Shown: in pieces, positions 7,701-26,728 of the stretch
Numbering within the stretch: the stretch's first letter is position 1
How the letters are laid out: every line of letters starts with the position of its first letter
Assembly (NCBI GenBank): GCA_021208685.1
Contig: JAJOJJ010000021.1
Coordinates: 46,353-110,352, forward strand
Length of the DNA stretch: 64,000 nt
Source: Saccharospirillaceae bacterium
GTDB lineage: Bacteria > Pseudomonadota > Gammaproteobacteria > Pseudomonadales > Oceanobacteraceae
Direction: 5' to 3'
Notes under the pieces: model-generated
The model's input: the letters and a program-made list of their open reading frames with translations, nothing else
What the model was told of the DNA's origin: nothing
The model's database searches: none
Translations under genes and position numbers: made by a program

Positions 7701-8709
7701 ACATCATGCCACGAACGGTAGAATCACCCAGCAATAAACCGGCTTGTCGCTTATCGGCATCGTAACCGGATAAATCATCGACAAAGGTTTTCAACTCATT
7801 ATAGGCATCGACAAATCCCTGAATACTGTCGGTCAGTTTTTCTGTATCAGCCGAAACCGTTACACTGATATTTTTTCCGACATCGGCATTTTTAAGATTG
7901 AGCGTTACCCCTTTAATGACTTCATCCACCGCATTGCTGCTGCGGGTAATGGTCAGGCCGTTGACATTCAGCTGCGCATCTTCGCCTTTACTGGTCTGGC
8001 TCATATTGGCAGCGGTATTCTGATTTTCATTAAACGCCAATGCCGCCAGGCCACCATTTAACAGATTTCCGGAATCATCCAGCGCGGCAATACGCATGGC
8101 ATTTTCTTCACCGGTTTCTGTTGAGGTCATCAACAAGCGATAACCGCCGCCATCGTTGATGATGCTGGCATTGACCCCCATATCAGCATTATTGATCGCA
8201 TCGCGGATACCGCTGAGTGTGCGGTTAGACTCATCAATCGTAATGGTTTTCCCCAGACGATCAGGATTCAGATCCTGACTGACGAAATTACCACCGGCAC
8301 CATAAGTAATATCACCAAACGTAAAGACCAGTTTTCCGGTGCCAATAATTTCATCGAAGCTGCTGTAGGTTTGCGTGGCCAGAGAATGGGATTTTGCCGT
8401 ATTCAGCACTTCCACATTGTAAGTACCGGGCTCAGATAAACTGGAGGTTGTTGCGGTTAGAATATCTTCATCAGAGGATGTCGCCGTGGTTGAGCTGACC
8501 AGACTGGGACTGGACAGGCTATTTGCCGCAGACTGAACTTTGGCCATGATCGACTGGATTTCACCGTAGGCGGTTATTTTTGCCTCAACCAGTTTTTGCC
8601 GCCTGTCCAGACGCAGAGACACCGCCTCTTTCTCAGCGGTAATGATTTTCTCGACCAGATCCGTGGTCAGAACACCTGACCCCAATCCCAGCGATTCAAT
8701 GGACGCCAT
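4760..8709 (-). pseudogene. fliD: Flagellar filament cap FliD, about 1316 aa if joined; split by an apparent 1-nt deletion near 6665 into ORFs 6625-8709 and 4760-6655
   Basis: The FliD N-terminus (MASIESLGLGSGVLTTDLVEKII) is in the first ORF and the FliD C-terminus (EARLKSQFLYNDAIISTLN) in the second; the frames differ by -1. This may be a true mutation or a sequencing error. Confidence 0.8.
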
Positions 8710-8770
8710 ACGTCTTACCTCATATTGCCCGGGACGTGCTGCTTGCGGTATCGCAGGATGACCCCAAAAC

Positions 8771-8811
8771 AAAAAACCCTGTACTGGCTTTATCGGCCAA
8801 TGCAGGGTTTT
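8771..8811 (-). terminator. Intrinsic terminator after fliC-flaG
   Basis: AAAACCCTG-C-ATTGGC-CGATAAA-GCCAGT-A-CAGGG-TTTTTT on the minus strand. Confidence 0.7.
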
Positions 8812-12200: not shown

Positions 12201-12398
12201 ACGCACAGCCACGTTCAGACCCTTGATCTGGGATGTAAAGCGGGTGGAAATCGCCAGACCGGCAGCGTCATCCTTCGCGCTGTTAATACGCAGACCAGAA
12301 GACAAGCGTTGCAATGCCTGTTGATTGGATGACTGGGACTTATCCAGGTTGCGCTGAGCATTCAGCGACGCAATGTTGGTATTAATAATTTGAGGCAT
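9297..12398 (-). CDS. fliC: Flagellin, 1033 aa, with a very large variable region
   Basis: N-terminus PQIINTNIASLNAQRNL...LSSGLRINSAKDDAAGLAI and C-terminus RADLGAIQNR...SRIQDADFAAE...VLSLLG; start moved to ATG 12398. Confidence 0.98.
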   Translation of the reverse strand: MPQIINTNIASLNAQRNLDKSQSSNQQALQRLSSGLRINSAKDDAAGLAISTRFTSQIKGLNVAVRNAGDGIALAQTAEGALGSINENLQRIRELAVQSANATNSDVDREALQAEVDQLVAEISRTSEETDFNGRKLLDGSFSATFQVGANAGQTVDVSIAELTANKLGASDQAGISAQGKGAALQNGDLIINNIAVSPSKGADDTASTKNASFSAIAKAAAINDVYDQTGVKAFVNENVASGSQMSAKAGTVKLTLNNVEISLSTSTDAAGTRASVVEAINAVADQTGVTAVSSGTDANGVKLVAADGRNIDIAFSSPTGSITNDADAAAATGLATENTYYGGYTLVADGDVDSVVITGGDGTGNGNLANAGLNRGTYESGAAQVASTATTLTSGAEFSTSLPTGTAGAQLSTALGLVSDGRIAFGTSETVTVTTNDGQSATFSAGSAGNLGAKEIAAAINGFNGISAAAETKVKLEAAGGDGYFTGGQIQIFDSSTEGDALIAISLSSTASTVEDIANAINATPSSGLVATYVAGSTGGATNGDVFITDADGDTLVITGGAAAGGTTSSFDLTVYDATGTSTAKLAAVGGTQTSGALVTGYLKDVDVTSEDLKSISLSSNLAVAGIATSGSVTGGSIFNFRETNTGATDVNSISVDAGQEPVRGLKEGDLSINGVNIAAADVNSDKASATVASDGSVIQSSVKSQSAIAIADTINKVSDKTGVTATANETVVIGSGSSSDLATKQAAAKAAGYEAGESGKLYINGVDIGVVSLVDDGTGNIDTDATKANTIDLINQKSGQTGVTAEDNGVSITLRAADGRNISVALDNDGANNGVNPAAAGANGFGSLIGLDSSVDGIGEADIGTATVSDNIGTRGTATEGATYETTYGTVTLSSAKEISLEAGSNGKDEIEALGFKVAQYGGGEDGQFLSEIDISTFEGATAAITAIDNAIGQVASQRADLGAIQNRLESTVSNLQVTSENLNSANSRIQDADFAAETAELSRTQVLQQAGISVLAQANAAGQQVLSLLG

Positions 12399-12471
12399 AA
12401 CCGTTCCTCCGACAGATTTCACAATCGCCGCCGGATCGTCCCGAACAGCGCGTTCGTGTTGTACATCCTTG

Positions 12472-12647: not shown

Positions 12648-14684
12648 ATGAACCTAGAGCGCCTTGCGGCACTGAAAGTCAAAAATTTGTCGTTTATCAG
12701 AGATAATTTTCCGACGCTTTTCCCGCTGCTGAATGAACACAGCCCCAAGAAAAAGCGGCTGAATGCGGATACCCTCGCAAACCAGTTCCAGCTGCTGGAT
12801 ACCGAGACCGGTCAGATACTGATCAACGATGCCGAAAAAAACGCCGAAGCGGAGGTGCTCTCTTTTATTAATCAATGCCACCGGAACAATCGGCTGATCA
12901 CGGTCGCAACAGGATTTCGCAATACCTTTACCATTCCACGATTTTCGGCTAAGAAGCTCGCTGAAATTGTGGATAACAGCCCGCTCACGCAAGAAAATTT
13001 TAATTTTTACCCTTTTGATCATCACATCCCAATGCTCTGCATTATGGGCATGGGCCTGGGCATTCATATTGAAAAGCTGCTGCAGAGTGTCACTGTTGAT
13101 CATCTGGTGATATGCGAAAGAGATAAGGATGAGCTTTATGCCAGCCTGTTTACCATTGATTGGGAGGAACTGTTTCTGCCCTTTCTGCAGGATCCTCATA
13201 AATCGGTGACGCTGATTGTTTTGCCAATCAACAATGACAATGCGGCATTCGGCATATTATGGAATCATCTGGTCAAGCAACCACCGTTTTTTCCTACCGC
13301 AACGGTTTTCTACAATCATCGCAGAACCAACCGTAACGAGAAAATTTTAGCGCGGGTCCGCAAAGACATAACGATGTACTACAGCCTTTGGGGTAACTAT
13401 GACGATGAGATCAACCAGCTGAATAATGCTCTGCATAACTTCCGGGCCGGAATTCCGAGGCTGAGGAAACCGCTCCGGGAATATACTGATACTCCGGTCT
13501 TAATCATTGGTTCGGGACCTTCGCTGGATGAACGAATGGAGTGGATTCGTGCAGTGCGGAATAAAGCCATTATAGTGTCCTGCGGCTCTGCACGTGACGT
13601 ACTGCGAAGAAACGGCATCCACCCTGATTTTCAGGTTGAGCTGGAATCAGACTATGTTGCAGCCGAAGCCTATTCCAGAACCGTTACCCGTGCCGATACT
13701 CAAGGAACAACGCTGATGGCTGCGGCTCAGGTTCCCCCAAAGATTTTTGCGCTTTATGAAGACAGGCAAATGTATTTTAAGGACTCCACGGCAATGGCCA
13801 GCCTGTTTTCTGAAAACAACGTTGTCTCCGGATGTACACCATCAGCCACCAATGCCGGACTGGGAGTATTCCTTCATCTCGGATTTGAAAATCTGTTCTT
13901 ATTTGGGATGGACTTTGGTTACATTGACCCTGAAAAGCACCACTCTAAAGACAGCATCTATTACACCGATGAAAACCCCGAAGATCTCATCGACAGCACC
14001 TGGGATAACCTCGATCAGGGTATGCCCACTCCGGGGGTACAGGGGCACGATATCAAAACCATCCCATTCCTCTACACCGGAAAACGACGAGTTGAAGTAG
14101 AAATAGCCAGTGTGATGCACATGCGCGCTCTTAATACATACAACTGTTCGTTAGGGGCAACCATTGATAATGCCGAATGGTTGGATAATTTCGATGCTTT
14201 CAGCGAAAAAGTTCTGAGCCTTCCCGGAGATCACCAAAGCGCATTAAACAGCATCAGGGAAGCAGGTGATCCGGTGACAAGGCAAGAACAGGATGAAAAA
14301 TTAAGGCTGCTCGAAGATGCGATTCGTCGTGTTTCAGAAAGGATTCTTGATGAACTTGATCATCTGGAAATCAGCATGGAAAGCCTTTCTGATACTACCT
14401 ATCGGATTGCACGCTTTATTGAAGAGGACATCTATCAGAAGCTGAAAACAATTTATTATATCTTCCGCGGCTCCGTTTGGTTTTTCCTTTCCATTGGTTA
14501 CGCTCACAGCTACGCCCTGACAGGCGATGAAAGAACAGAATTTATTAAACTGTGGCTTAAAACATTCCGGGAATTTCTTACCGAATGGCCAGAACACTAC
14601 TGCTCTATCGTATATCGTGATACTGACGCCGAAAATGATCCGATGCTGACTAAAATGATTACCGAAGCCGTTGATGGAGTATAA
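12648..14684 (+). CDS. Motility-associated factor (Maf, DUF115/MptE-like) flagellin glycosyltransferase
   Basis: IIGSGPSLD, IVSCGSA and FLFGMDFG motifs; divergent from fliC and first gene of a nonulosonate cluster. Confidence 0.88.
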   Translation: MNLERLAALKVKNLSFIRDNFPTLFPLLNEHSPKKKRLNADTLANQFQLLDTETGQILINDAEKNAEAEVLSFINQCHRNNRLITVATGFRNTFTIPRFSAKKLAEIVDNSPLTQENFNFYPFDHHIPMLCIMGMGLGIHIEKLLQSVTVDHLVICERDKDELYASLFTIDWEELFLPFLQDPHKSVTLIVLPINNDNAAFGILWNHLVKQPPFFPTATVFYNHRRTNRNEKILARVRKDITMYYSLWGNYDDEINQLNNALHNFRAGIPRLRKPLREYTDTPVLIIGSGPSLDERMEWIRAVRNKAIIVSCGSARDVLRRNGIHPDFQVELESDYVAAEAYSRTVTRADTQGTTLMAAAQVPPKIFALYEDRQMYFKDSTAMASLFSENNVVSGCTPSATNAGLGVFLHLGFENLFLFGMDFGYIDPEKHHSKDSIYYTDENPEDLIDSTWDNLDQGMPTPGVQGHDIKTIPFLYTGKRRVEVEIASVMHMRALNTYNCSLGATIDNAEWLDNFDAFSEKVLSLPGDHQSALNSIREAGDPVTRQEQDEKLRLLEDAIRRVSERILDELDHLEISMESLSDTTYRIARFIEEDIYQKLKTIYYIFRGSVWFFLSIGYAHSYALTGDERTEFIKLWLKTFREFLTEWPEHYCSIVYRDTDAENDPMLTKMITEAVDGV

Positions 14685-14686
14685 CA

Positions 14687-15670
14687 ATGCAACGACCGAT
14701 TCTGGTTACAGGCGCTGATGGGTTTATTGGTTCGCATCTGGCGGAGCAATTAATCAAAGCAGGATACCCGGTCAGAGCCATGACGCTCTATAATTCATTT
14801 AATTCCTGGGGATGGCTTGACAATTCCATTTACATCCATGATATGGAAATTATCAGCGGAGATATTCGCGATCCGTTCTTTTGTCAGCAGGCAGTTAAGG
14901 GCTGCTCATCCGTGTTTAATCTTGCTGCCCTGATCGCCATTCCATATTCCTATCAGGCACCTGCCAGCTATGTAGCCACCAATATTGAAGGTACGGTTAA
15001 TTTGCTTCAGGCAGCACGCTCTGAAGAAACTGAACACTTCATCCAGACATCCACTTCCGAGGTCTACGGAACGGCTCGCTACACGCCAATAGATGAAGAG
15101 CATCCACTTCAGCCGCAATCTCCTTACAGTGCCTCAAAAATCAGCTCAGACTCCATGGCTCTGAGCTATTACAACAGTTTCTCTCTTCCGGTTACGATTG
15201 CCCGGCCATTCAATACGTATGGCCCAAGACAGTCTGCCAGAGCCGTTATTCCAACGATCATTACTCAGATTGCAGCAGGACAAAAGACAATACAGCTTGG
15301 CGATCTATCTCCGACACGCGATTTTAATTTTGTTGAAGATACATGCAATGGCCTTATCAGTTTGCTTGGCAAAGAGCAGACCATCGGAGAAGTGATCAAT
15401 ATCGGCAGTAATACTGAAATATCCATTCTTGATACTGTCCAGAAAATCCGCAACATAATGAAGTCAGATGTAGACATCATTCATGACAGTAATCGTATCC
15501 GGCCGGAAAAATCAGAAGTTCATCGTCTGGTCTGTGACAACCGGAAAATGCTCCGCCTCACCGGATACAAGCATAAGGTATCACTGGAGGAAGGCCTGAG
15601 AAAAACCATCGAATGGTTCTCTCATCCCGAAAACCTCTCCCGTTATAAAGCAGACCGATACAATGTTTGA
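14687..15670 (+). CDS. legB: NAD-dependent sugar 4,6-dehydratase LegB
   Basis: VTGADGFIGSHL, LAALIAIPYSY, TSTSEVYG and YSASK. Confidence 0.88.
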   Translation: MQRPILVTGADGFIGSHLAEQLIKAGYPVRAMTLYNSFNSWGWLDNSIYIHDMEIISGDIRDPFFCQQAVKGCSSVFNLAALIAIPYSYQAPASYVATNIEGTVNLLQAARSEETEHFIQTSTSEVYGTARYTPIDEEHPLQPQSPYSASKISSDSMALSYYNSFSLPVTIARPFNTYGPRQSARAVIPTIITQIAAGQKTIQLGDLSPTRDFNFVEDTCNGLISLLGKEQTIGEVINIGSNTEISILDTVQKIRNIMKSDVDIIHDSNRIRPEKSEVHRLVCDNRKMLRLTGYKHKVSLEEGLRKTIEWFSHPENLSRYKADRYNV

Positions 15671-16805
15671 CCAGCTTAAAGATCTGATACTCGCCATGTA
15701 TCCCGGTGAACATACCATAGCACTGCACAGGCCTTTGTTTTCTCAGGATGAAGAATCTGCAGTAGCCGCCTGCATAAGAAGCAGCTACGTATCATCCATT
15801 GGTCCTGATATTGAAAAATTCGAGCAACATATTGCTGAATTTTGTTCATCGGGTTATGCAATATCAACCGTTAACGGAACGGCAGCCCTGCATCTTTCTT
15901 TACATGCTATTGGTGTGAGCCATAATGATATTGTGCTGACTCAGTCCCTGAGTTTTGCAGCTACTGGCCATGCGATCCTGCAAACCGGTGCAAAGCCTGT
16001 TTATATTGATATCACCATGCCGCAAGGCAGTATGTGTCCGGAGGCATTACTCCGGTTTCTGTCAGAAGAGTGCCGAAGACAGGACGATATCTGTACCCAT
16101 AAAATCAGTGGTCGCAGGATTGCTGCTTGCGTTCCTATGCATTCTTTTGGTGAACCGGCAAAAATATCTCAGATCGAAGCAATATGCAGAGAATGGTCAA
16201 TACCATTGATTGAAGATGCAGCCGAGGCACTGGGCAGCTTCATTGATGGCAAACATTGCGGAACCTTCGGCTTATGCGGAGTGCTGAGCTTTAATGGTAA
16301 CAAAATAATGACGACAGGTGCCGGTGGAATAATTCTTTGCAAAAATGAGGCATTGGCCAAGCGTCTTAAGCATTTATCAACGACAGCCAAAATCCCTGAT
16401 CCTTTTGAGTTTCGTCACAGTGAAACCGGATTCAACTATCGACTCCCAAACTTAAATGCCAGCCTTGGAATCGCTCAGTTCAGAAAATTACCCAACTTTC
16501 TGAACTCGAAAAGAGCAATTCACAGACAATACCAGACATTCTTCCAGCGTTTTGGCTACGAGCTTGTCAATAGCCCGGAAGCAGAGTCTAACCATTGGCT
16601 GAATACTGTCATCATGAACAGCCCGGATGAAAAGGAATCTCTGCTGAAATTTCTGAAAGCCTACGACATTCAGGCAAGACCAGCCTGGTACCCACTGCAT
16701 CGTCAAACACATCTTCAGTCAGTATCTGAACATCCGCTGCCTGAAACAGAATGGCTATACAGCCGGGCAGTCAGCCTGCCCAGCAGCGTCCCGTTGAGTG
16801 TATGA
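15663..16805 (+). CDS. legC: DegT-family aminotransferase LegC
   Basis: NGTAALHL, EDAAEALGS, SFNGNKIMTTGAGG and GFNYRLPNLNA. Confidence 0.88.
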   Translation: MFDQLKDLILAMYPGEHTIALHRPLFSQDEESAVAACIRSSYVSSIGPDIEKFEQHIAEFCSSGYAISTVNGTAALHLSLHAIGVSHNDIVLTQSLSFAATGHAILQTGAKPVYIDITMPQGSMCPEALLRFLSEECRRQDDICTHKISGRRIAACVPMHSFGEPAKISQIEAICREWSIPLIEDAAEALGSFIDGKHCGTFGLCGVLSFNGNKIMTTGAGGIILCKNEALAKRLKHLSTTAKIPDPFEFRHSETGFNYRLPNLNASLGIAQFRKLPNFLNSKRAIHRQYQTFFQRFGYELVNSPEAESNHWLNTVIMNSPDEKESLLKFLKAYDIQARPAWYPLHRQTHLQSVSEHPLPETEWLYSRAVSLPSSVPLSV

Positions 16806-16808
16806 TTT

Positions 16809-17948
16809 ATGATTAAAATCGCGTGTTTTACGGCAACGAGGGCAGAATATGGGTTACTAAAGCCCATTCTTAAAGCACTCTGCGCGAGTGGTGAATTTTC
16901 GGTAAGCCTTATTGTCAGCGGCACACATCTGGATAATACATTTGGCTATACATCCGAAGAAATCCGGATTGACGGAATTTCTTCCTGTATAAAATTACCC
17001 ATGAACTATTCAGACGACACAGCCAAAGGGAATGTCGGGCGTTCGGCTACCGTACTGACCGGACTGGCTGGCATTCTTCCTGAATTATCGGCAGATGCAA
17101 TGTTAATTCTTGGTGACCGATACGAAACTCTGGCGGTAGCCCAGGCCTGCTGCATGATGAATATTCCCGTACTGCACTTACATGGCGGCGAATTAAGCTA
17201 TGGCTCGCAGGACAACCAGTTTCGTCACGCAATCAGTAAACTGTCACATGTTCATCTGTGTGCTACAAAGGAATCCCGGAAACGACTGATGAAGATGGGG
17301 GAATCACCTGACCGGATATTTCTGGTCGGTGCGCCTGGGGTTGAAAACTGCAGACATCAGCCCCTGACTGATCTTAATATTCTTATCCGTGATCTTCACA
17401 TCAACTGGCAACCTGTCAATATTCTGTTTACCTATCACCCGGACAGTTTATCTCCGGAAAAGAGTGAGCGGGAATTGGATGAGATACTATCCGCTTTAGA
17501 AAAAATACCCGACCTCGGCATCATCATGACCTATCCAAATGCCGACTCCGGACACAAGGCAATTATAAGAAAAATCCGCGAGTTTCAGTCCAGACATCCG
17601 GAGCGTGTCAGCCTTCACAAAAGCCTTGGCACACAACGATATCTTACACTGATAAAAGCAGTCGATGCCGTGGTCGGAAATTCATCAAGCGGCATTATTG
17701 AAGCTCCATCAATGGGTACAAAAACGCTGAATATAGGAAACAGGCAAAGAGGCAGAGAGCGCGCCTTGTCTGTTATTGATTCTGAACCGGTTGAAAAGGA
17801 AATACTCGCTGCATTAAACGCCATTCTGAGCAGTGGTAATTCCTCTTTCAGTAACCCATATGACTGGGGAGATACCAGCATTAACGTCTTAAATGTTCTT
17901 AAAGAACTGGATTTTCCCGCTTTGCTTGAAAAGGATTTTTATGAGTAA
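16809..17948 (+). CDS. neuC: Hydrolysing NDP-sugar 2-epimerase (NeuC/LegG)
   Basis: TATRAEYG, LGDRYE, HLHGGE and GNSSSGIIEAP. Confidence 0.88.
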   Translation: MIKIACFTATRAEYGLLKPILKALCASGEFSVSLIVSGTHLDNTFGYTSEEIRIDGISSCIKLPMNYSDDTAKGNVGRSATVLTGLAGILPELSADAMLILGDRYETLAVAQACCMMNIPVLHLHGGELSYGSQDNQFRHAISKLSHVHLCATKESRKRLMKMGESPDRIFLVGAPGVENCRHQPLTDLNILIRDLHINWQPVNILFTYHPDSLSPEKSERELDEILSALEKIPDLGIIMTYPNADSGHKAIIRKIREFQSRHPERVSLHKSLGTQRYLTLIKAVDAVVGNSSSGIIEAPSMGTKTLNIGNRQRGRERALSVIDSEPVEKEILAALNAILSSGNSSFSNPYDWGDTSINVLNVLKELDFPALLEKDFYE

Positions 17949-19020
17949 TAAACCCAGTGTTCTGATCATTGCTGAAGCCGGAGTTAATCATAATGGGAGC
18001 CTCGACATGGCCATGAAGCTGGTCGATATCGCTGTAGATTCCGGAGCGGATATCGTCAAGTTCCAGATTTTTGACAGCAATATGCTGACAACCAGACACG
18101 CAGAAAAAGCCGACTATCAAAGAACCCTATCTGACAATAACCAGAACCAGCAATCCATGCTGAAGGCGCTTGAACTGAGCCATGAAGACTTTATAAACAT
18201 CAGCCGATACTGCAATGCAAGAGGCATTGAATTCCTTGCAACCGCCTTCGATGAAGTCTCACTTGAATTTCTGCTGTCAGAGCTTGACGTGAAACGACTA
18301 AAAATCCCTTCCGGGGAGCTGACTAATTTGCCGTTTATTATGCGTCATGCAAAATCCGGTCTGCCTCTGATACTGTCTACCGGAATGGCCTCGGAAAGTG
18401 AAATAACAGAGGCGCTGGCAACCATAGCTTTCGCGGTTCTGTACCCTGACAGGGAGCCAGCATCGCGCAACGAGCTGACGTCAGCCTTACAGAGCATTCC
18501 ACATGATGAGCTGGCCAGGCGCATTACCATACTGCAGTGCACGACGGCCTATCCGACCGCTGATATCGATGTGAACCTCCGGGTAATACCTGCCCTGAGC
18601 CAGCGCTTCCGTTGCGATGTCGGATTTTCTGATCATACGCCGGATATGTTTGCCGCACCGCTGGCCGTAGCGGCAGGAGCAACCGTTATAGAAAAGCACT
18701 TCACATTGAGTCGCAATCTTCCTGGCCCAGATCACAAGGCATCTCTGGAACCCGATGAACTCAGAACAATGATAAAGGCGATAAGACGATCCGAAATAAT
18801 GTTGGGAAAGGCTGTAAAAAGCATCAGTCCGACAGAAGCAAGCAACCTGCACGCGGCCAGAAAAAGTCTGGTTGCCACTCAACCCATTAAAGCAGGTCAG
18901 ATGCTGACAACGCAGAATATAACGGCCAAAAGACCCGGCAATGGTCTGTCACCGGCCTGTTACTGGGATATCATCAATACCACCGCCAGCAAGGACTATG
19001 ATCAGGATGAACTCATCTGA
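17941..19020 (+). CDS. neuB: Nonulosonate (legionaminate) synthase NeuB/LegI
   Basis: IIAEAGVNHNG, KIPSGELTN, GFSDHT, EKHFTL and a C-terminal SAF domain; start moved to ATG 17941. Confidence 0.92.
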   Translation: MSNKPSVLIIAEAGVNHNGSLDMAMKLVDIAVDSGADIVKFQIFDSNMLTTRHAEKADYQRTLSDNNQNQQSMLKALELSHEDFINISRYCNARGIEFLATAFDEVSLEFLLSELDVKRLKIPSGELTNLPFIMRHAKSGLPLILSTGMASESEITEALATIAFAVLYPDREPASRNELTSALQSIPHDELARRITILQCTTAYPTADIDVNLRVIPALSQRFRCDVGFSDHTPDMFAAPLAVAAGATVIEKHFTLSRNLPGPDHKASLEPDELRTMIKAIRRSEIMLGKAVKSISPTEASNLHAARKSLVATQPIKAGQMLTTQNITAKRPGNGLSPACYWDIINTTASKDYDQDELI

Positions 19021-19654
19021 CTTGCCCATTCTTATTCTGGGAACTGGCGGACACGCAAGAGTGGTCGCTGACACACTGTTATGCAGCGGCCTGCGCATAC
19101 AGGGGTTTTTAGATCCGGAACCTCAGTTTACTGAGTGGCGAAGCATTCCCTGTCTCGGCAGCGATGACATTCTCGCCAGCTTCTCTCCGGATGCCGTTTT
19201 GCTCGCAAACGGAATTGGCTCACTCCCCTTTTCGACCACACGGATCAGAGCCGTTGAAAAAGCCGAGAGCGCGGGATTTACCTTCTGTACGGCCATTCAT
19301 CCCTCCGCAATTGTTGCCGCTGATACAAAACTTGCCGATGGTGTGCAAATACTTGCCGGTGCGATCATTCAGACGGGTACCGTTATTGGCAAACACACCA
19401 TTATTAATACGGGTGCCCGCATAGACCATGACTGTGCGATCGCCGGTTTTTGTCACATCGCACCCGGAGCCACGCTATGCGGCTCAGTGCGTCTGGCACA
19501 AAGGGTGCATATAGGAGCTGGAGCGACCATTATTCAAGAAGTTGACGTTGGTGCCGATACCGTTATTGGAGCCGGTGCAACCATCACCCTGTCGGCAGAT
19601 TCAATGCAGGTGATTCGTAATCCGGAGGTCGTAAAAGAACCCAGGCGGAGGTAA
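19007..19654 (+). CDS. NeuD/PglD-family sugar acetyltransferase (LegH-like)
   Basis: ILGTGGHARV and hexapeptide repeats IINTGARIDHDC; start is either 18998 or 19007. Confidence 0.85.
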   Translation: MNSSDLPILILGTGGHARVVADTLLCSGLRIQGFLDPEPQFTEWRSIPCLGSDDILASFSPDAVLLANGIGSLPFSTTRIRAVEKAESAGFTFCTAIHPSAIVAADTKLADGVQILAGAIIQTGTVIGKHTIINTGARIDHDCAIAGFCHIAPGATLCGSVRLAQRVHIGAGATIIQEVDVGADTVIGAGATITLSADSMQVIRNPEVVKEPRRR

Positions 19655-19656
19655 TC

Positions 19657-20718
19657 ATGACCCATTGGCAAAGCGTGCTGCTTTCAGAAAAAGATACAAT
19701 AGAAGATGCCATTAAAGTCATTAACGATTCCAGCTTGCAGATTGCACTGGTTTGCAACGAGCGCCGTCAACTGCTTGGCACCGTCACAGATGGGGATATC
19801 CGTCGTGCGCTCCTGAACGACAAAAATCTGATATGCCCCCTCCATGACATTATGTGCAAAGAACCGGTTACAGCAACGCCTGTACAGTCCCTTGCACAGG
19901 TACGCGCATTGATGCGCCGTCACTCTGTGCAGCAAGTACCCGTCATTGACGATGGTGTCATTGTTGACCTTTACACCGCACGAGAACTGGATTCCGCAAG
20001 AAGAAAATCCAACCCGGTTTTCCTGATGGCCGGCGGATTTGGTAAACGACTTAAACCGCTCACAGACGACTGTCCAAAACCATTACTGAAAGTGGGTGAC
20101 AAGCCCATTCTGGAAACCATTCTGGAAAGCTTCATTGAGCATGGCTTTCATCAGTTTTATATATCCACCCACTATCTTCATGAAAAAATTACGGACTACT
20201 TTGGCAATGGTGAACGCTGGGGGGTCGACATTCATTATGTTCACGAGGAATCCCCCCTCGGAACAGCCGGGGCGCTGAGTCTTCTGCCGCAAGATTTGCA
20301 GGAACCTATTCTGATGATGAATGGTGACTTACTGACGAAAGTAAATTTCAATCAACTGCTTTCCTATCACGAAGAACATGAAGCAACAGCGACTATGTGT
20401 GTAAGACGCCACGAATATCAGATTCCCTATGGCGTCATACACAGTGATGGTCATCAGATAGAAAAAATTGTCGAAAAGCCGATACAGTCATTCTTTATTA
20501 ATGCTGGAATCTACGTAATCAGTCCGGAATTACGCGGCAAAGTATCTTGTGAAAAACCTACCGATATGCCAGATCTTTTGCAGAAGCAAATTAACTCGGG
20601 TAAAAACGTCTCACTATTTCCTATTCATGAATATTGGCTTGATATTGGTAAAATGCCAGACTACAACCAGGCTCAGCAGGATTTCCGGAATGATTTTTTC
20701 GGTCGGGAAAGGCATTAA
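19657..20718 (+). CDS. CBS-domain nucleotidyltransferase (LegX/PtmE-like)
   Basis: Two CBS motifs, then MAGGFGKRLKPLT, PLGTAG and MNGDLLT. Confidence 0.9.
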   Translation: MTHWQSVLLSEKDTIEDAIKVINDSSLQIALVCNERRQLLGTVTDGDIRRALLNDKNLICPLHDIMCKEPVTATPVQSLAQVRALMRRHSVQQVPVIDDGVIVDLYTARELDSARRKSNPVFLMAGGFGKRLKPLTDDCPKPLLKVGDKPILETILESFIEHGFHQFYISTHYLHEKITDYFGNGERWGVDIHYVHEESPLGTAGALSLLPQDLQEPILMMNGDLLTKVNFNQLLSYHEEHEATATMCVRRHEYQIPYGVIHSDGHQIEKIVEKPIQSFFINAGIYVISPELRGKVSCEKPTDMPDLLQKQINSGKNVSLFPIHEYWLDIGKMPDYNQAQQDFRNDFFGRERH

Positions 20719-21428
20719 TGATCAATGATAAGCGTGTACTTTGCGTTGTTCCGGCCAGAAGTGGCAGTAAGGGCCTGAAGGATAAAAACATCCGTCAACT
20801 GGCCGGAAAACCCTTGCTTGCATGGCCAGTGTGCTGTGCACGCGAAAGCAAGTACATTGACCGCGTTATTGTTTCTACAGACTGCGATGAATACGCCGCT
20901 ATTGCCCGCCAATATCTGGCGGATGTACCCTTTCTCAGACCAGCAAATCTTGCGCAAGATTCAACAACCACCTTCGAAGTTCTGGATCACCTGATTAATA
21001 ATCTCCAGGAAAACTACGACATTCTGGTATTGCTGGAACCCACATCCCCGCTGACCGAGGCAAAGGATGTTGATAGCGCTCTTGAAACATTGATACGTTC
21101 ATGGGAAAAAGCAGATTCCATCGTTGGGGTGACACAGGAAATAAAATCCCATCCGGCGTACTTATTAACCATCGATGCCGAGAAGAAAATTCAAAGCCTT
21201 AATGCCGATTTTTCCAAAGCGGTAAGAAGGCAGGAATTATCCGCTGTATACAGAATGGATGGCACACTCTACATCAGCAAAACAGACGCTCTGCAAAGAG
21301 AATTGGGGTTTTACCATCAGCGGACGCTTGGCTTTATAGTACCTGAATGGAAGAGCTATGAAATTGATTCATTAACAGATTTCATATGCATTGAAGCCAT
21401 TATGAATAACAGAGAGGTTCTGTCGTGA
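20718..21428 (+). CDS. CMP-nonulosonate synthetase (NeuA/LegF-like cytidylyltransferase)
   Basis: PARSGSKGLKDKNI, VSTD, PFLRP and EPTSPL. Confidence 0.9.
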   Translation: MINDKRVLCVVPARSGSKGLKDKNIRQLAGKPLLAWPVCCARESKYIDRVIVSTDCDEYAAIARQYLADVPFLRPANLAQDSTTTFEVLDHLINNLQENYDILVLLEPTSPLTEAKDVDSALETLIRSWEKADSIVGVTQEIKSHPAYLLTIDAEKKIQSLNADFSKAVRRQELSAVYRMDGTLYISKTDALQRELGFYHQRTLGFIVPEWKSYEIDSLTDFICIEAIMNNREVLS

Positions 21429-22768
21429 GCGCTATTCAGAAGCAAGCAGTCAAGAAAAGCTACCAGCAGCGCCTGAAAGACGTTATTCCTGGCGGTGCTC
21501 ACACATACTCGCGTGGTTCAGATCAGTTCCCATCAAATGCCCCTCAGATTCTGAGCAGTGGATCAGGAGTGTATGTAAAAGATGCTTCAGGGAACGAATT
21601 TCTGGATTTTGGCATGGCATTAAGATCCGTTGCGATTGGCTATGCTGAAAAGTCAGTGAATGATGCTGCAATCCAGCAAATCCTGGCCGGCAATAATCTG
21701 ACCCGTGCTTCGATGATTGAACTGGAAGCAGCGGAAAGGCTGACCGGCATGATAACCAGTGCCGACATGGTAAAGTTCACAAAAAATGGTTCTACAGCAG
21801 TATCGGCTGCGGTAAAACTGGCGCGGGCCTATACTGGCAGGAAGTTAATATTACGCTGCTCAGACCATCCGTTCTTCTCATTCGACGACTGGTTTATCGG
21901 ATCAACCGTGATTAACCGTGGTGTCCCTGAAGAAATATCCGGACTGACCATAACCTTTCCCTATAACGATGCCGTGACTCTTAAAACCATTCTGGATGAG
22001 CACGGTTCCAATATTGCCTGCCTTGTCATGGAGGCAGCGACAACCGAAGAACCCGCAGCATCCGTTTTTGAACCGGGAAAATCCTACCTGAACGATGTCG
22101 AATTCCTCTGTAAAAAGCACGGTATCGTGTTCATACTCGATGAAATGATCACCGGCTTCCGCTGGCACAAGTACGGCGCACAGGCACTGTATGGTATTCA
22201 TCCGGATCTGACGACTTTTGGCAAAGCCATGGCGAACGGATTCTCTGTTGCAGCGGTTGCAGGTAAGCGAGACATTATGAAGCTTGGCTCAATTGATGAG
22301 ACCGGACAGGAACGTGTATTTTTGCTATCCACTACTCATGGTGCAGAAATGAGTGGACTCGGCGCCTTTGTGGCAACAATGGATTTTTATGACAATCACG
22401 ATGTTACAGGACACATGTGGGCGTTTGGCAAAAAACTCAAGCATCTCATTAACCGTAAAGCACTTGAGCATGGCCTGAAAGAGAACCTTGCCGCATATGG
22501 TTTCGATTGCTCTCCCGGCATAATCCTTAAAGATCAGAATGCTCAGGTATCAATGCCTCTGCGAACACTGTTTATGCAGGAAATGATGAATAACCGGGTA
22601 ATGATTCCATGGATATCCATTGCTTACCACCATGGTGATAAGGAGCTTGAACAGGTCGAACACGCTCTGAATCGCTCACTACCCGTTCTTCAGAAAGCCC
22701 TGAATGAAGGAATCAGCCGTTACCTGACCGGAGATTCCATACAACCTGTATTCCGCAAATATAACTGA
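21425..22768 (+). CDS. Class III PLP aminotransferase (glutamate-1-semialdehyde aminomutase-like fold)
   Basis: PGGAHTYSRG, KFTKNGS, FILDEMITGFR and TTFGKAMANG (PLP lysine); context points to sugar modification rather than heme synthesis. Confidence 0.85.
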   Translation: MSAIQKQAVKKSYQQRLKDVIPGGAHTYSRGSDQFPSNAPQILSSGSGVYVKDASGNEFLDFGMALRSVAIGYAEKSVNDAAIQQILAGNNLTRASMIELEAAERLTGMITSADMVKFTKNGSTAVSAAVKLARAYTGRKLILRCSDHPFFSFDDWFIGSTVINRGVPEEISGLTITFPYNDAVTLKTILDEHGSNIACLVMEAATTEEPAASVFEPGKSYLNDVEFLCKKHGIVFILDEMITGFRWHKYGAQALYGIHPDLTTFGKAMANGFSVAAVAGKRDIMKLGSIDETGQERVFLLSTTHGAEMSGLGAFVATMDFYDNHDVTGHMWAFGKKLKHLINRKALEHGLKENLAAYGFDCSPGIILKDQNAQVSMPLRTLFMQEMMNNRVMIPWISIAYHHGDKELEQVEHALNRSLPVLQKALNEGISRYLTGDSIQPVFRKYN

Positions 22769-22776
22769 AGGTAAAA

Positions 22777-23541
22777 ATGTCGATCAAAAAGACTGTCGTA
22801 ATAACAGGTGCTGCCGGGTTAATTGGAACATCATTCTGCAATGCAGTTGCCAGCAATGGATATAATCTGGTGATAGCAGACAATAATGAAGAACGCTCAG
22901 AATTGCTTGCAGCGGAAATAAGATCACATGGTCACGAAGCACACGCCTGCATTTTTGATGCAACCAGAGCGGATGATATTCAACGACTCCTGAACGCCAG
23001 CCTGGAGCGGTTTGGTAACATCTACGCTCTGGTTAATAACCTCTACATCCGCAGCGGAAATTACGGTGCGGATTTCTTTGATGTTACCTACGAAGACTTC
23101 AGCAAAAATCTGTCGGATAATGTGACACCTTACTTTGAGCTTTCAAAGAGATTCGCCCGACATTTTTGCGATTCAAAAACGGGAGTAATCGTAAATATCG
23201 CTTCGGTATACGGAGCCATTGCCCCCAGGTTTGACATTTATGCCAATACAAACATGACCATGCCGGTAGAATATTCTGCGATAAAATCGGCAATACTACA
23301 CCTGACACGCTACATGGCAAAGAGACTGAAAGGCTACAACATCCGGGTCAATGCCATCAGTCCTGGTGGCATTCTCGATGGTCAGCCTGAAGCATTTCTG
23401 AACGCGTATAATGACAACTGTTTAAGCAAAGGAATGCTCAGTCCTGAAGATTTATGTGGTACATTGCTATTTTTGCTGTCAGATCAGTCGCGCTATATAA
23501 ACGGGCAAAACATCATTGTTGATGATGGATTTACGTTGTAG
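22777..23541 (+). CDS. Short-chain dehydrogenase/reductase, PtmA-like flagellin modification protein
   Basis: TGAAGLIG, YSAIK catalytic motif, RVNAISPGG and YINGQNIIVDDG. Confidence 0.85.
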   Translation: MSIKKTVVITGAAGLIGTSFCNAVASNGYNLVIADNNEERSELLAAEIRSHGHEAHACIFDATRADDIQRLLNASLERFGNIYALVNNLYIRSGNYGADFFDVTYEDFSKNLSDNVTPYFELSKRFARHFCDSKTGVIVNIASVYGAIAPRFDIYANTNMTMPVEYSAIKSAILHLTRYMAKRLKGYNIRVNAISPGGILDGQPEAFLNAYNDNCLSKGMLSPEDLCGTLLFLLSDQSRYINGQNIIVDDGFTL

Positions 23542-23549
23542 GAGCGAGA

Positions 23550-24221
23550 ATGAAAACAAGTATCAGCTCTGTGCAACTTGAACAATACCTCAAAGAACAG
23601 ATTTCCACTTTTTTTCCTGACAACAATAAAGATTGGCAAGAAGCCATACCCCTATGCTGCCCTATAGCACTGGAAAGACTTGAGCACTGCTTTAGCAACA
23701 TTGCGGGAAAGTACTACCAGATAAATGACCAGGCAGTATTCAACCACATGAATTCCGACCACTATGCGACGTTTCTCTACTTTATTGCGAATCAGGCATA
23801 CTCATACGGAAACCTGGCGCTTGCTGAAAGAGCATTTTATCTCAATAAAGCGCTCAACGGTCTGGACTTATTCTACAGCGTAAAAATGCCGGATATATTT
23901 CTTCTGGTACATCCGGTCGGAAGTGTAATAGGTAATGCTGATTTTTCTGACTATCTGGTAATTTATCAGAATGTTACTATCGGTTCAGATAAAGACGGTA
24001 TATATCCATCATTTTCAGGGTCAAATGTACTGTATTCAGGATCAAGTGTCATAGGACGCTGCCGGATAGGAAAGAATTCTGTCATCGGCGCCCGGGCGTT
24101 TATAAGAAAGCTTAACGATCCGGAAGATAATCGGATATACAGCGGTTTATACCCAAACATTCGTTCTACACCGAATATACGATCGGTTAATGAAGATTTT
24201 TTTATGGAGAATCCGGTATGA
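23550..24221 (+). CDS. Serine-acetyltransferase-like left-handed beta-helix acyltransferase
   Basis: HPVGSVIG, IYQNVTIG and SSVIGRCRIGKNSVIGA hexapeptides. Confidence 0.75.
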   Translation: MKTSISSVQLEQYLKEQISTFFPDNNKDWQEAIPLCCPIALERLEHCFSNIAGKYYQINDQAVFNHMNSDHYATFLYFIANQAYSYGNLALAERAFYLNKALNGLDLFYSVKMPDIFLLVHPVGSVIGNADFSDYLVIYQNVTIGSDKDGIYPSFSGSNVLYSGSSVIGRCRIGKNSVIGARAFIRKLNDPEDNRIYSGLYPNIRSTPNIRSVNEDFFMENPV

Positions 24222-25339
24222 CAACTGCCACCAACCAGCCAGCGTTATTCTGGTGTAAGACATGTCTGAATATGTCAACCAGGCCGCGCATCGAATTTGA
24301 TGAGCATGGCCGCTGTAATGCCTGCCAGTGGACGGAAGAAAAAAAGACATTTGACTGGTCATCAAGAATGCATGAACTGAAAGGCCTGCTTGAAAAGCAT
24401 CGCAGTAAAACCGGCGAGTTTGATGTCGTGGTTCCTGTCAGCGGTGGAAAAGATGGTTCGTACGTGAGCCATATGCTGAAGCATGAATTCGGAATGCATC
24501 CTCTGGCAGTAACAATAACACCACCTCTCAGCTTCTCAATTGGTGATAAGAACCTGCAGAATTATATTGCTTCCGGTTATGACACTATTCAGATTAACCC
24601 GAATCAGAAAGTAATGCAGGAACTTAACCGCCGCGGCTTTTTGGAACAAGGAAGACCATTGTATGGCTGGGTCATCGCAATCCTTGCCGGTGTTATCCGT
24701 ACAGCGGCTAACTTTGGTGTAAATCTCGTTATGTACGGGGAAGATGGTGAAATCGAATATGGCGGATCGACTGAAAGTAAAAACAGACCAGTATTCACTG
24801 CTGAATTTATGAAACGTGTTTATCTTGAAGGACAGTATGAACAAACACTGCGGGATTTGAGCAGTCAGCAAACCTACTTCTGGCGGTTTGATGCGGATGA
24901 TCAGAAATTAGGGAATATCGAATGTGCTCACTGGTCGTACTTTGAAAGCTGGGATCCTTACCGGAATTATATGATTGCCAAGGAACACTGCGGCTTACAG
25001 GAAAAGGAGGAGTCTAATACCGGAACTTATACCAATTTCGCTCAAAACGATACTTGTCTGTATGACCTTCATACTTACCTTATGTATCTGAAATTTGGTT
25101 TCGGCAGAGCAACTCAGGATGCTGGAATCGATATACGCCGTGGAGCAATGTCACGCGATCAGGGAAAAATGCTCGCCCAGATGTATGATAACAGCTACCC
25201 GGAAGCCTTTATTGAAAAATATCTCGATTATTACCAGATAAGCCGCGATCTGTTCGACAAAACCATCGATAAATTTGCCAATAAAGACCTGTTCTACAAA
25301 GATGGCGACCGCTGGATGCCTAAGTTTGAGATCGTATGA
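24218..25339 (+). CDS. N-acetyl sugar amidotransferase (PtmG/WbpG-like)
   Basis: CKTCLNMSTRP, CNAC, VPVSGGKDG and LKFGFGRAT. Confidence 0.9.
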   Translation: MTTATNQPALFWCKTCLNMSTRPRIEFDEHGRCNACQWTEEKKTFDWSSRMHELKGLLEKHRSKTGEFDVVVPVSGGKDGSYVSHMLKHEFGMHPLAVTITPPLSFSIGDKNLQNYIASGYDTIQINPNQKVMQELNRRGFLEQGRPLYGWVIAILAGVIRTAANFGVNLVMYGEDGEIEYGGSTESKNRPVFTAEFMKRVYLEGQYEQTLRDLSSQQTYFWRFDADDQKLGNIECAHWSYFESWDPYRNYMIAKEHCGLQEKEESNTGTYTNFAQNDTCLYDLHTYLMYLKFGFGRATQDAGIDIRRGAMSRDQGKMLAQMYDNSYPEAFIEKYLDYYQISRDLFDKTIDKFANKDLFYKDGDRWMPKFEIV

Positions 25340-25953
25340 TTATCACACTGATTGATTATGGCATGGGAAATCACCTGTCAGTGAGAAATGCACTGAAAAG
25401 GATTGGCCATGAATCATCTATCAGTCAAGATCCTGAAGATATAAAAGATTCAGATTTCATTATATTACCAGGTGTCGGTTCATTCCGGCGTGCCATGAAT
25501 AATCTTAATAGTCTTGGTTTCACTGAAGCAATAAAATCTGCGGCAGAAAACGGAATACCATTGCTTGGGATCTGTCTTGGCATGCAACTTTTTGGCTCAG
25601 AGAGCACAGAGGATGGTACATCTGAAGGACTTTGCCTTATCGACAATAAAATAATAAAGCTCGAACCTGCTTCGGGATTGCGGGTTCCACACGTAGGATT
25701 TGATAACGTTTACTGGAATTCTTCCAACAGTCTTATGAATGGAATTGATCAGAACAGTGATTTTTATTTTACTCACAGCTATGCAATGACACAGACCGAT
25801 GAAAGAGCTGACTACATTTACTGCGACTATGGCAGTTCTTTTATTGCCGGATTCAGAATAGAAAATGTATTTGGTGTACAATTTCATCCTGAAAAGAGCC
25901 AGAACAATGGCCTCCAGCTCATGAAAAATTTTCTGGAGACTAAACGTGCTTAA
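25336..25953 (+). CDS. HisH-like glutamine amidotransferase subunit
   Basis: DYGMGN, PGVGSF, GICLGMQ and QFHPEKS; a glycan-cluster paralogue. Confidence 0.88.
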   Translation: MIITLIDYGMGNHLSVRNALKRIGHESSISQDPEDIKDSDFIILPGVGSFRRAMNNLNSLGFTEAIKSAAENGIPLLGICLGMQLFGSESTEDGTSEGLCLIDNKIIKLEPASGLRVPHVGFDNVYWNSSNSLMNGIDQNSDFYFTHSYAMTQTDERADYIYCDYGSSFIAGFRIENVFGVQFHPEKSQNNGLQLMKNFLETKRA

Positions 25954-26728
25954 AAAACGCCTGATTTTTACGCTCTTGTATAAGAATGGCAGTTTTATGC
26001 TTAGCAGAAACTTCAGGCTTCAGCGTGTTGGTGATATTCACTGGCTATTCAGGAACTATCATTTTGAAACAATATCCAGTGCCATTGATGAACTCATCGT
26101 TCTCAATCTGGACAACGACGAAAGCAGAATTCCAGAGTTTCTGTCAACGCTTGAGGAAATGGTCAGGCATTGCATGATTCCTGTTGCTGCCGGTGGACAG
26201 ATCAGAAATTTAAAAACAGCTTCTGCCTTACTTGCTCATGGGGCGGACAAGCTGGTTATCAACACTGCATTTTTTGAACAACCCGAACTCATTACAGAGT
26301 TGGTATCATGCTATGGAAGCCAATGCATTGTCGCCAGCGTAGATTGGAAGGGAGGCGAACAAACGACAGTATTCAGCCACAACGCGACTCGTGAGCAAGG
26401 TCTTTTGAGTGATCATCTTCAGCATTTATCTGAACTTAATGCCGGAGAAATTTATCTGAATGCAATACATCGTGATGGAACAGGACAAGGCTATGACCTC
26501 AATGCTCTGAATTCAGTACCAGCCAGTTGGAAAACGCCAATCATTTATGCCGGGGGTGCTGGTCACAGCAGCCACCTCAGCCTTGCTTTAGATCATCCGA
26601 TGATTGATGCCGCCGCAACGGCAAACCTGTTTAACTTTGTAGCCGGTGGCCTGAGGAATGCAAGAAATGAATTACTCAGCAACGGTATTCCACTTGCAAT
26701 ATTCAATAAGAATCCGGAAATCATTTAA
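25946..26728 (+). CDS. HisF-like cyclase-fold subunit
   Basis: SRNFRLQRVG, PVAAGG, GADKLVINTA and IHRDGTGQGYD; GTG start. Confidence 0.85.
   Translation: MLKKRLIFTLLYKNGSFMLSRNFRLQRVGDIHWLFRNYHFETISSAIDELIVLNLDNDESRIPEFLSTLEEMVRHCMIPVAAGGQIRNLKTASALLAHGADKLVINTAFFEQPELITELVSCYGSQCIVASVDWKGGEQTTVFSHNATREQGLLSDHLQHLSELNAGEIYLNAIHRDGTGQGYDLNALNSVPASWKTPIIYAGGAGHSSHLSLALDHPMIDAAATANLFNFVAGGLRNARNELLSNGIPLAIFNKNPEII

Follow-up and report, generated by a model that had tools for sequence, protein, structure and literature searches.

We analyzed a 64,000-nt stretch of the genome of a Saccharospirillaceae bacterium (GenBank assembly GCA_021208685.1, contig JAJOJJ010000021.1, positions 46,353 to 110,352; hereafter the window), in which genes for a pyridoxal phosphate (PLP)-dependent class III aminotransferase (AT3) and a short-chain dehydrogenase/reductase (SDR) follow the legionaminic acid (Leg) genes of a flagellin-sugar operon. 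The host genome is Thalassolituus-like and 4.0 Mb in size. The operon occupies positions 12648-26728 of the plus strand as a single densely packed unit, with a giant flagellin gene on one side and flgL-like, flgK, and flgJ genes on the other. The flagellin gene and the operon, from the Maf gene to the HisF-like gene in the order of transcription, are as follows (window positions; aa, amino acids):

9297..12422, minus strand: giant flagellin of 1041 aa, the presumed glycosylation substrate (Pfam Flagellin_N, 5e-45; Flagellin_C, 4e-27)
12648..14684, plus strand: Maf-type flagellin glycosyltransferase (Pfam MptE-like and Maf_flag10_N)
14687..15670, plus strand: LegB-like nucleoside diphosphate-sugar 4,6-dehydratase (Pfam GDP_Man_Dehyd, 1e-74)
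15663..16805, plus strand: LegC-like DegT aminotransferase (Pfam DegT_DnrJ_EryC1, 2e-81; PDB relatives include PglE-like enzymes, perosamine synthase, and KdnA)
16809..17948, plus strand: NeuC/LegG hydrolyzing 2-epimerase (Pfam Epimerase_2, 4e-73)
17893..19020, plus strand: NeuB/LegI nonulosonate synthase (Pfam NeuB, 1.5e-83, and SAF)
18941..19654, plus strand: NeuD/LegH N-acetyltransferase (TIGR03570, 201 bits; cut-off exceeded, 160.8)
19657..20718, plus strand: PtmE/LegX, CBS domains with a sugar-1-phosphate nucleotidyltransferase (Pfam CBS and NTP_transferase)
20718..21428, plus strand: NeuA/LegF cytidine monophosphate (CMP)-nonulosonate synthetase (Pfam CTP_transf_3, 2e-28)
21425..22768, plus strand: AT3, a HemL-like class III PLP aminotransferase of 447 aa, PRK06209 family (NF004856; Pfam Aminotran_3, 1e-35)
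22777..23541, plus strand: PtmA/ElaC-type classical SDR of 254 aa (NF006619; Pfam adh_short/adh_short_C2, 1e-35 to 1e-39)
23550..24221, plus strand: CysE/EpsC-like hexapeptide acyltransferase (weak EpsC/CysE matches)
24218..25339, plus strand: WbuX/PtmG-type N-acetyl sugar amidotransferase for acetamidino formation (TIGR03573, 323 bits; cut-off exceeded, 203)
25336..25953, plus strand: HisH-like glutaminase subunit of the amidino module (TIGR01855, 219 bits)
25946..26728, plus strand: HisF/WbuZ-like subunit of the amidino module (TIGR03572 WbuZ, 197 bits)

The set for CMP-Leg by the GDP-N-acetylglucosamine route was complete, all seven genes (LegB, LegC, LegH/NeuD, LegG/NeuC, LegI/NeuB, LegF/NeuA, and LegX/PtmE) being recognized with Pfam/NCBIfam models, as an earlier reading made from the sequence only had stated. 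The same models found no PseB-type (Polysacc_synt_2) or PseG gene in the window. All three components of the acetamidino module (WbuX/PtmG, HisH, and HisF) were present and adjacent. The NeuA stop and the GTG start of AT3 overlap as GTGA, with AGAGAGG upstream of AT3; the SDR begins 8 nt past the AT3 stop, with GAAGG 4 nt upstream of its ATG, and the hexapeptide acyltransferase begins 8 nt past the SDR stop, with GGAG ahead. AT3 and SDR are translationally coupled behind the Leg set; the GTGA overlap and the Pfam matches bear out the two coupled reading frames of the sequence-only reading. No internal promoter- or terminator-like motif in the operon rose above shuffled controls.

AT3 scored 619.7 bits on NF004856 (PRK06209), above the cut-off of 486, and was the sole such match in the genome. 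The NCBIfam label of this model is "glutamate-1-semialdehyde 2,1-aminomutase." On the hemL model TIGR00713, AT3 reached 193.5 bits, below the cut-off of 527.3, and a canonical hemL lies elsewhere in the genome (contig handle G000:C26, 431 aa, 629 bits on TIGR00713). When 66 AT3 family members were aligned against the genome's own HemL, the PLP lysine (K267), D239, and the PGG...R motif (P22-G23-G24...R30) were invariant in the family, and the HemL active-site gating loop carried a deletion of 8-9 residues in every member (66/66). AT3 also has a family-specific insertion at residues 290-303 (ERxFLLSTTHGAE) and a C-terminal extension of 25 residues ending in QPVFR. Its AlphaFold (AF2) model had a predicted local distance difference test (pLDDT) score of 88, with low pLDDT in the gating-loop region. 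The nearest folds were glutamate-1-semialdehyde aminomutase (GSAM), D-phenylglycine aminotransferase, FumI, and PctV at identities of 26% or less; against HemL/GSAM, Foldseek gave a TM score of ~0.8 at 20-26% identity, and the structure comparison returned no solved structure for any AT3 family member. Because the gating loop is deleted, AT3 is judged not to be an aminomutase. The sequence-only reading had kept an enzyme forming 5-aminolevulinic acid (ALA) as an alternative; with the score below the hemL cut-off, the separate hemL, and the lost loop, a HemL/ALA function was rejected. Among the PDB relatives of AT3 were the class III aminoglycoside C-6' aminotransferases and NeoN, which transaminate sugar carbonyls, and we propose that AT3 is a transaminase of a keto-nonulosonate.

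A second candidate role, in which AT3 would install the C5 amine via a GDP-mannose/perosamine route, was also rejected here. NeuC-type hydrolyzing epimerases need a 2-acetamido sugar, and the LegB of the window is not Gmd-like (252 bits versus 526 for a real Gmd), which weighs against this route.

The SDR scored 316 bits on NF006619 (PRK09186), above the cut-off of 255, and 221 bits on the FlagModPtmA equivalog NF050062, below the cut-off of 350. Asp35 follows beta2 and, on this ground, suggests that the cofactor is nicotinamide adenine dinucleotide (NAD). A 2026 paper reported crystal structures of Acinetobacter baumannii ElaA (Gfo/Idh/MocA), ElaB (cytidylyltransferase), and ElaC (SDR), and named ElaC residues for catalysis and for binding docked CMP-8-keto-Leg5,7Ac2 (PMC13656337). 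All 13 named residues (Y91, Y97, S145, Y147, I156, Y157, M164, P165, Y168, K172, Q205, F209, and Y213) were matched in the SDR of the window (Y90, Y96, S143, Y145, I154, Y155, M162, P163, Y166, K170, Q203, F207, and Y211, respectively), and the elongated S-to-Y loop of ElaC was also present. The 13 matches identify the SDR, at the level of sequence, as an enzyme of the ElaC/PtmA type. No gene for a Gfo/Idh/MocA protein (ElaA/PtmF type) was found in the window, and a search of the whole 4.0-Mb genome gave only one marginal match (24.6 bits), on an unrelated contig. The sequence-only reading was therefore right that the SDR lacks such a partner, and the Gfo/Idh/MocA oxidase by which an ElaABC-type C8-epimerase is recognized is missing from this genome.

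We investigated how widely this gene pair occurs. A first search for AT3 homologues returned at least 8000 proteins at E ≤ 0.001, the best-scoring of those listed being ~60% identical. We recovered 80 genome loci across many phyla, covering Gamma- and Betaproteobacteria, Campylobacterota, Legionella, Bacteroidota, Verrucomicrobiota, Synergistota, Actinomycetota, Nitrospinota, the candidate phyla radiation, and one archaeal metagenome-assembled genome. Most of them carry the pair in the same position, so the rarity that the sequence-only reading had implied did not hold. The nearest loci, in Thalassolituus pacificus and T. alkanivorans, have an AT3 that is 83-84% identical and an identical gene order, and several Legionella species have exactly the gene set of the window. 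In a sample of 400 gammaproteobacterial genomes, the Leg-type AT3 was found in 6 (~1.5%) and a sister subfamily in 9 (2-3%); sister-type matches occurred in ~14-15% of 351 sampled Bacteroidota genomes.

Clustering by gene order gave the conserved block PtmE - NeuA - [Gfo/Idh/MocA] - AT3 - [C-N hydrolase] - SDR. Neighbors were counted in those loci, 64 in all, whose sequence extended 2.6 kb or more to both sides of AT3. NeuA lay within 2.6 kb upstream of AT3 in 57 of these, and a redox partner adjoined AT3 in 59: both a PtmA-type SDR and a Gfo/Idh/MocA protein in 25, the SDR only in 28, and the Gfo/Idh/MocA protein only in 6. Four of the other five had a more divergent SDR or an offset Gfo/Idh/MocA gene nearby, and the fifth was locus L020. 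The AT3 of the window, directly after NeuA and with a redox partner, has the arrangement of the majority. Further neighbors were less frequent: a C-N hydrolase directly after AT3 (15/64), a hexapeptide transferase (16/64), and WbuX (18/64). The pair is also additional to the minimal pathway, in agreement with the sequence-only reading, since seven Leg genes, with no PtmA, PtmF, or AT3 among them, are enough to support Leg-dependent glycosylation of flagellin in the heterologous host Caulobacter (bioRxiv 10.1101/2022.03.25.485807). It is a widespread, named, uncharacterized accessory module of nonulosonate clusters, and the interest lies in the AT3 family as a whole rather than in this genome.

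Sister subfamilies and gene fusions placed the module more closely. Members of the sister subfamily AT3' scored 364-414 bits on NF004856, were 32-36% identical to AT3, and had the same gating-loop deletion and C-terminal PxF tail. In three fetched loci (L107-L109), AT3' sits in a canonical pseudaminic acid (Pse) cluster next to an aldo-keto reductase (AKR), in the order PseB-PseC-AKR-PseF-AT3'-PseG-PseI, which agrees with the published Aeromonas and Legionella pneumophila Sg6 loci. Because Pse starts from UDP-N-acetylglucosamine, the supply of a GDP-sugar precursor does not explain the association of AT3'. A NeuA::AT3 fusion of 693 aa was found in a Leg-type locus of Chromobacterium vaccinii (L065:9269-11350), and a PseF::AT3' fusion of 714 aa (L112:8470-10614) had Pse-like neighbors (PseB-, PseF-, and PseI-like). 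In a third subfamily (proteins P0244-P0363), there were dozens of aminotransferase::SDR fusions (~725 aa), transketolase-C::aminotransferase fusions (~750 aa), and several cytidylyltransferase::aminotransferase fusions (~690-714 aa); in addition, a 940-aa open frame ran from the aminotransferase through the SDR (L139:8221-11043, minus strand). The surroundings of this subfamily form a third architecture, exemplified by L140:6821-14683, with a cytidylyltransferase, a transketolase split into N and C subunits, the aminotransferase, an SDR, a HAD phosphatase, a short NeuB (290 aa), and a fatty-acid hydroxylase. Loci of this kind were also L139, L141-L144, L111, and L113-L116, the architecture having been checked in six Bacteroidota genomes; no DegT enzyme or dehydratase was found near the aminotransferase in them. 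A possible end product of this architecture is an amino ulosonic acid or one of higher carbon number. Across the nonulosonate pathways, AT3 and an oxidoreductase work together near the CMP-activation step.

The near-obligate adjacency and the repeated fusions with cytidylyltransferase and SDR point to a shared pathway, and they bear on an explanation that would separate the two genes. The SDR might be only the C8 (or C4) epimerase component proposed for ElaC, for which genetic and structural work on ElaABC exists (PMC13656337), with AT3 an unrelated spare HemL/ALA-forming enzyme, as the NCBIfam name of its family implies, or an inactive paralogue. We regard this as very improbable: the genome has a bona fide hemL and lacks an ElaA to begin epimerization, and AT3 scores far below the hemL cut-off, has lost the gating loop, and retains its catalytic Lys, Asp, and Arg.

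The C-N hydrolase that follows AT3 in some loci belongs to the YafV/Nit2/Nit3 omega-amidase branch. Omega-amidases pair with glutamine transaminases, removing the 2-oxoglutaramate that these make. Because an omega-amidase often directly follows AT3, its presence suggests that AT3 takes its amino group from glutamine and runs in the aminating direction.

Taken together, these data are most consistent with AT3 and SDR being a back-end tailoring pair whose substrate is Leg itself, most likely as CMP-Leg. The mechanism put forward in the sequence-only reading fits best: (CMP-)Leg would be oxidized and then transaminated, in our view probably at C8. That the SDR oxidizes a hydroxyl of Leg, probably the one at C8, and that AT3 aminates the resulting ketone is a tentative reading, to which we give somewhat less than even odds. 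The substrate, carbon position, reaction direction, and step order given below are inferred. The NAD-type, ElaC/PtmA-like SDR would oxidize a secondary hydroxyl of (CMP-)Leg5Ac7Ac, probably the C8-OH, to a terminal methyl ketone; it is cast as the oxidase because the genome has no ElaA/PtmF-type oxidoreductase. AT3 would then transaminate the ketone with Gln or Glu as donor, giving an 8-amino-8-deoxy derivative (a 5,7,8-triamino-3,5,7,8,9-pentadeoxy-nonulosonate). C8 is favored because the pocket of the SDR equals that of ElaC and because the 8-keto-9-deoxy terminus (CH3-CO-CH(N)-) resembles the terminal two-carbon unit used by HemL-type enzymes. WbuX/HisH/HisF would turn one N-acetyl into an acetamidino group, the hexapeptide transferase would add an O- or N-linked acetyl, and Maf would transfer the finished sugar onto the giant flagellin.

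The acetyl step is not tied to AT3. Homologues of the hexapeptide transferase sit with SDR, PtmF (Gfo), and NeuA in loci without AT3 (L088 and L090), and within AT3 loci they stand mostly alongside WbuX/HisH/HisF (14/16). These occurrences weakened the idea of an oxidizing, aminating, and acetylating trio, and the transferase is not a private partner of AT3. We propose that it O- or N-acetylates the sugar.

Several points weigh against tailoring at C8. ElaC was proposed to work in the reductive direction, converting the 8-keto group to the 8-epi alcohol (PMC13656337). An ElaC-like enzyme in reverse should favor the 8-epi alcohol over the native C8-OH of Leg, and an ElaA that could make the ketone is missing from the genome. 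The match of SDR with ElaC was made by the published residue numbering, and the substrate pose in that paper is a docking model. No capping N-acyltransferase was conserved with AT3 across the loci, and literature searches found no paper assigning AT3 a function. The module is in thousands of genomes, yet only one report of triamino nonulosonates was found. Campylobacter jejuni, Campylobacter coli, and Plesiomonas have both PtmA and PtmF yet reportedly make plain Leg. Schoenhofen is said to have placed PtmA/PtmF at the start of the pathway in 2009, converting fructose-6-phosphate to glucosamine-6-phosphate in vitro with glutamine. In Plesiomonas, disruption of ptmA abolishes flagella (PMC4481668).

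The last two points would fit an alternative in which AT3 and SDR (PtmF elsewhere) work at the front of the pathway and make an amino-sugar phosphate for use by PtmE. In one version, AT3 would transaminate the C2 ketone of fructose-6-phosphate and SDR would oxidize C1 to yield glucosamine-6-phosphate, the step given to PtmA/PtmF. The in vitro assignment with L-Gln is repeated in the Plesiomonas work, where ptmA mutants are without Leg-dependent flagella (PMC4481668). PtmE belongs to the conserved block, the omega-amidase neighbor fits a glutamine donor, and the AT3 of the third subfamily is flanked by or fused to a ketose-making transketolase, together with NeuB and a HAD phosphatase and with no DegT nearby. 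However, the seven Leg genes function in the absence of the pair and of PtmA/PtmF, the sister subfamily adjoins PseF in Pse clusters that need no special precursor, and the fusion partner is a cytidylyltransferase, never PtmE among the fusions found. Moreover, no PtmE was seen within ~10 kb in three Leg-type AT3 loci (L009, L032, and L075), and the pocket of the SDR matches ElaC residues modeled on a CMP-nonulosonate. This peptidoglycan-making cell presumably also has GlmS and GlmM, and GlmS is well known for contaminating His-tagged proteins purified from Escherichia coli; such carry-over could explain the 2009 activity of PtmA/PtmF. We consider precursor supply by the pair unlikely.

Slightly less likely still, in our estimate, is that the pair leaves the sugar backbone alone and alters an N-acyl substituent, or that it produces a donor in the form of a D-amino or hydroxy acid. 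In the first case, for example, oxidation of a lactyl or 3-hydroxybutyryl group to the oxo-acyl form, followed by transamination, would yield an alanyl or aminobutyryl substituent of the kind seen in Vibrio vulnificus Leg5Ac7AcAla. D-Phenylglycine aminotransferase, a stereo-inverting enzyme, is among the closest solved relatives of AT3. N-acetyl-D-alanyl-Leg has been described, and the type of cluster behind it reportedly includes a "second aminotransferase" (PMC7371886). FemAB-family genes, which directly follow AT3-SDR in Campylobacter concisus (see below), would also agree with side-chain chemistry. By contrast, no acyl-activating enzyme, acyl carrier protein, or ligase was conserved with the pair across the loci, the NeuD of the window is an ordinary NeuD/PglB-family acetyltransferase, and the ElaC pocket residues that bind the two N-acetyl groups are conserved in SDR.

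Tailoring of CMP-Leg at C8 would have a chemical precedent. The O-antigen of Tenacibaculum (Flexibacter) maritimum contains a 5,7-diacylamido-8-amino-3,5,7,8,9-pentadeoxy-nonulosonic acid whose 8-amino group is free (review, PMC3210612), so a triamino sugar is less unusual than the sequence-only reading had supposed, and a 2022 genomic study stated that nothing was known of the genes behind it (PMC9796276). We put forward, as a possible but rather doubtful extension, that the HemL-like clade with an SDR, AKR, or Gfo partner is the missing route to 8-amino-8-deoxy (5,7,8-triamino) nonulosonic acids, sugars with T. maritimum as their sole chemically established source; they would then be widespread across phyla and also decorate this flagellin. 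If a third amino group is installed, the products would be a class of cationic or zwitterionic nonulosonic acids on flagella, capsules, and O-antigens, with consequences for serotyping and for recognition by phages and the immune system. Genes would then be assigned to the T. maritimum sugar, at present an orphan, and the conflict over PtmA/PtmF, precursor synthesis versus CMP-sugar tailoring, would be eased. Apart from this, genome pipelines label thousands of AT3-type genes "glutamate-1-semialdehyde aminomutase," and these are plainly genes of nonulosonate pathways. Taken by itself, the window yields a corrected annotation and not a singular discovery.

Some nonulosonate loci carried further candidate modification genes. 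In C. concisus (loci L028, L030, L034, L037, L038, and L080), a FemAB-family gene lies directly after AT3-SDR; enzymes of this family add amino acids to amines, and an AT3-derived amine may be aminoacylated in this way. Pairs of a formyltransferase and an LmbE/BshB1-like deacetylase occur within the Leg clusters of L013, L021, L028, L057, and L064, which suggests N-formyl variants of legionaminic acid. Two complete WbuX/HisH/HisF sets are present per nonulosonate locus in L087 and L016 and may correspond to two acetamidino groups or to two different sugars.

In the window, the longest open reading frames called for NeuB and NeuD overlap the upstream genes by 56 nt (17893-17948) and 80 nt (18941-19020), and their true starts are probably further downstream. 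The flagellar filament proteins are outsized, with a flagellin of 1041 aa (9297-12422, minus strand), FlgK of 993 aa (28078-31059, minus strand), and FliD of at least 715 aa (6625-8772, minus strand). They fit the "giant flagellin" type described for relatives such as Oleibacter and Bermanella.

Among characterized systems, KdnA/KdnB of Shewanella, which converts 3-deoxy-D-manno-octulosonic acid (Kdo) to 8-amino-Kdo, shares only the chemical logic of oxidizing a hydroxyl of an ulosonic acid and then transaminating it. KdnB belongs to the iron-type alcohol dehydrogenases rather than to the SDRs, and the target in that system is a primary C8 alcohol. KdnA (PDB 5k8b) had been taken for a class III aminotransferase in the sequence-only reading, but it belongs to the DegT family and matches the LegC of the window (1.9e-24), unlike AT3; homology of AT3 with KdnA was rejected, 5k8b being absent from the best 60 of 175 PDB matches of AT3. 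AT3 resembles HemL in its fold and subgroup, the PGG...R motif, the PLP lysine, and the aspartate, and differs from it in the deleted gating loop, the insertion at 290-303, and the 25-aa C-terminal tail. WbpB/WbpE/WbpD, GenQ/GenB, and NeoQ/NeoN, like the pair, combine a dehydrogenase with a PLP transaminase on a sugar hydroxyl, but they act on UDP-hexuronates or aminoglycosides, use other dehydrogenase families, and show low identity. The Aeromonas flagellin glycosylation islands (group I) and the Legionella pneumophila Sg6/12 lipopolysaccharide locus also have a HemL-like aminotransferase beside a cytidylyltransferase and a redox partner (PMC7874193 and PMC3694923); the pathway there is of the Pse type, the partner is an AKR rather than an SDR, and identity to AT3 is 32-36%. 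ElaA/B/C (A. baumannii KL49, the proposed CMP-Leg5,7Ac2 C8-epimerase) and PtmF/B/A (Campylobacter) have, like the window, a NeuA-type cytidylyltransferase followed by a PtmA/ElaC-type SDR, at the same location at the 3' end of the Leg cluster. Unlike these systems, the genome of the window is without Gfo/Idh/MocA and has a class III aminotransferase gene lying between NeuA and SDR.

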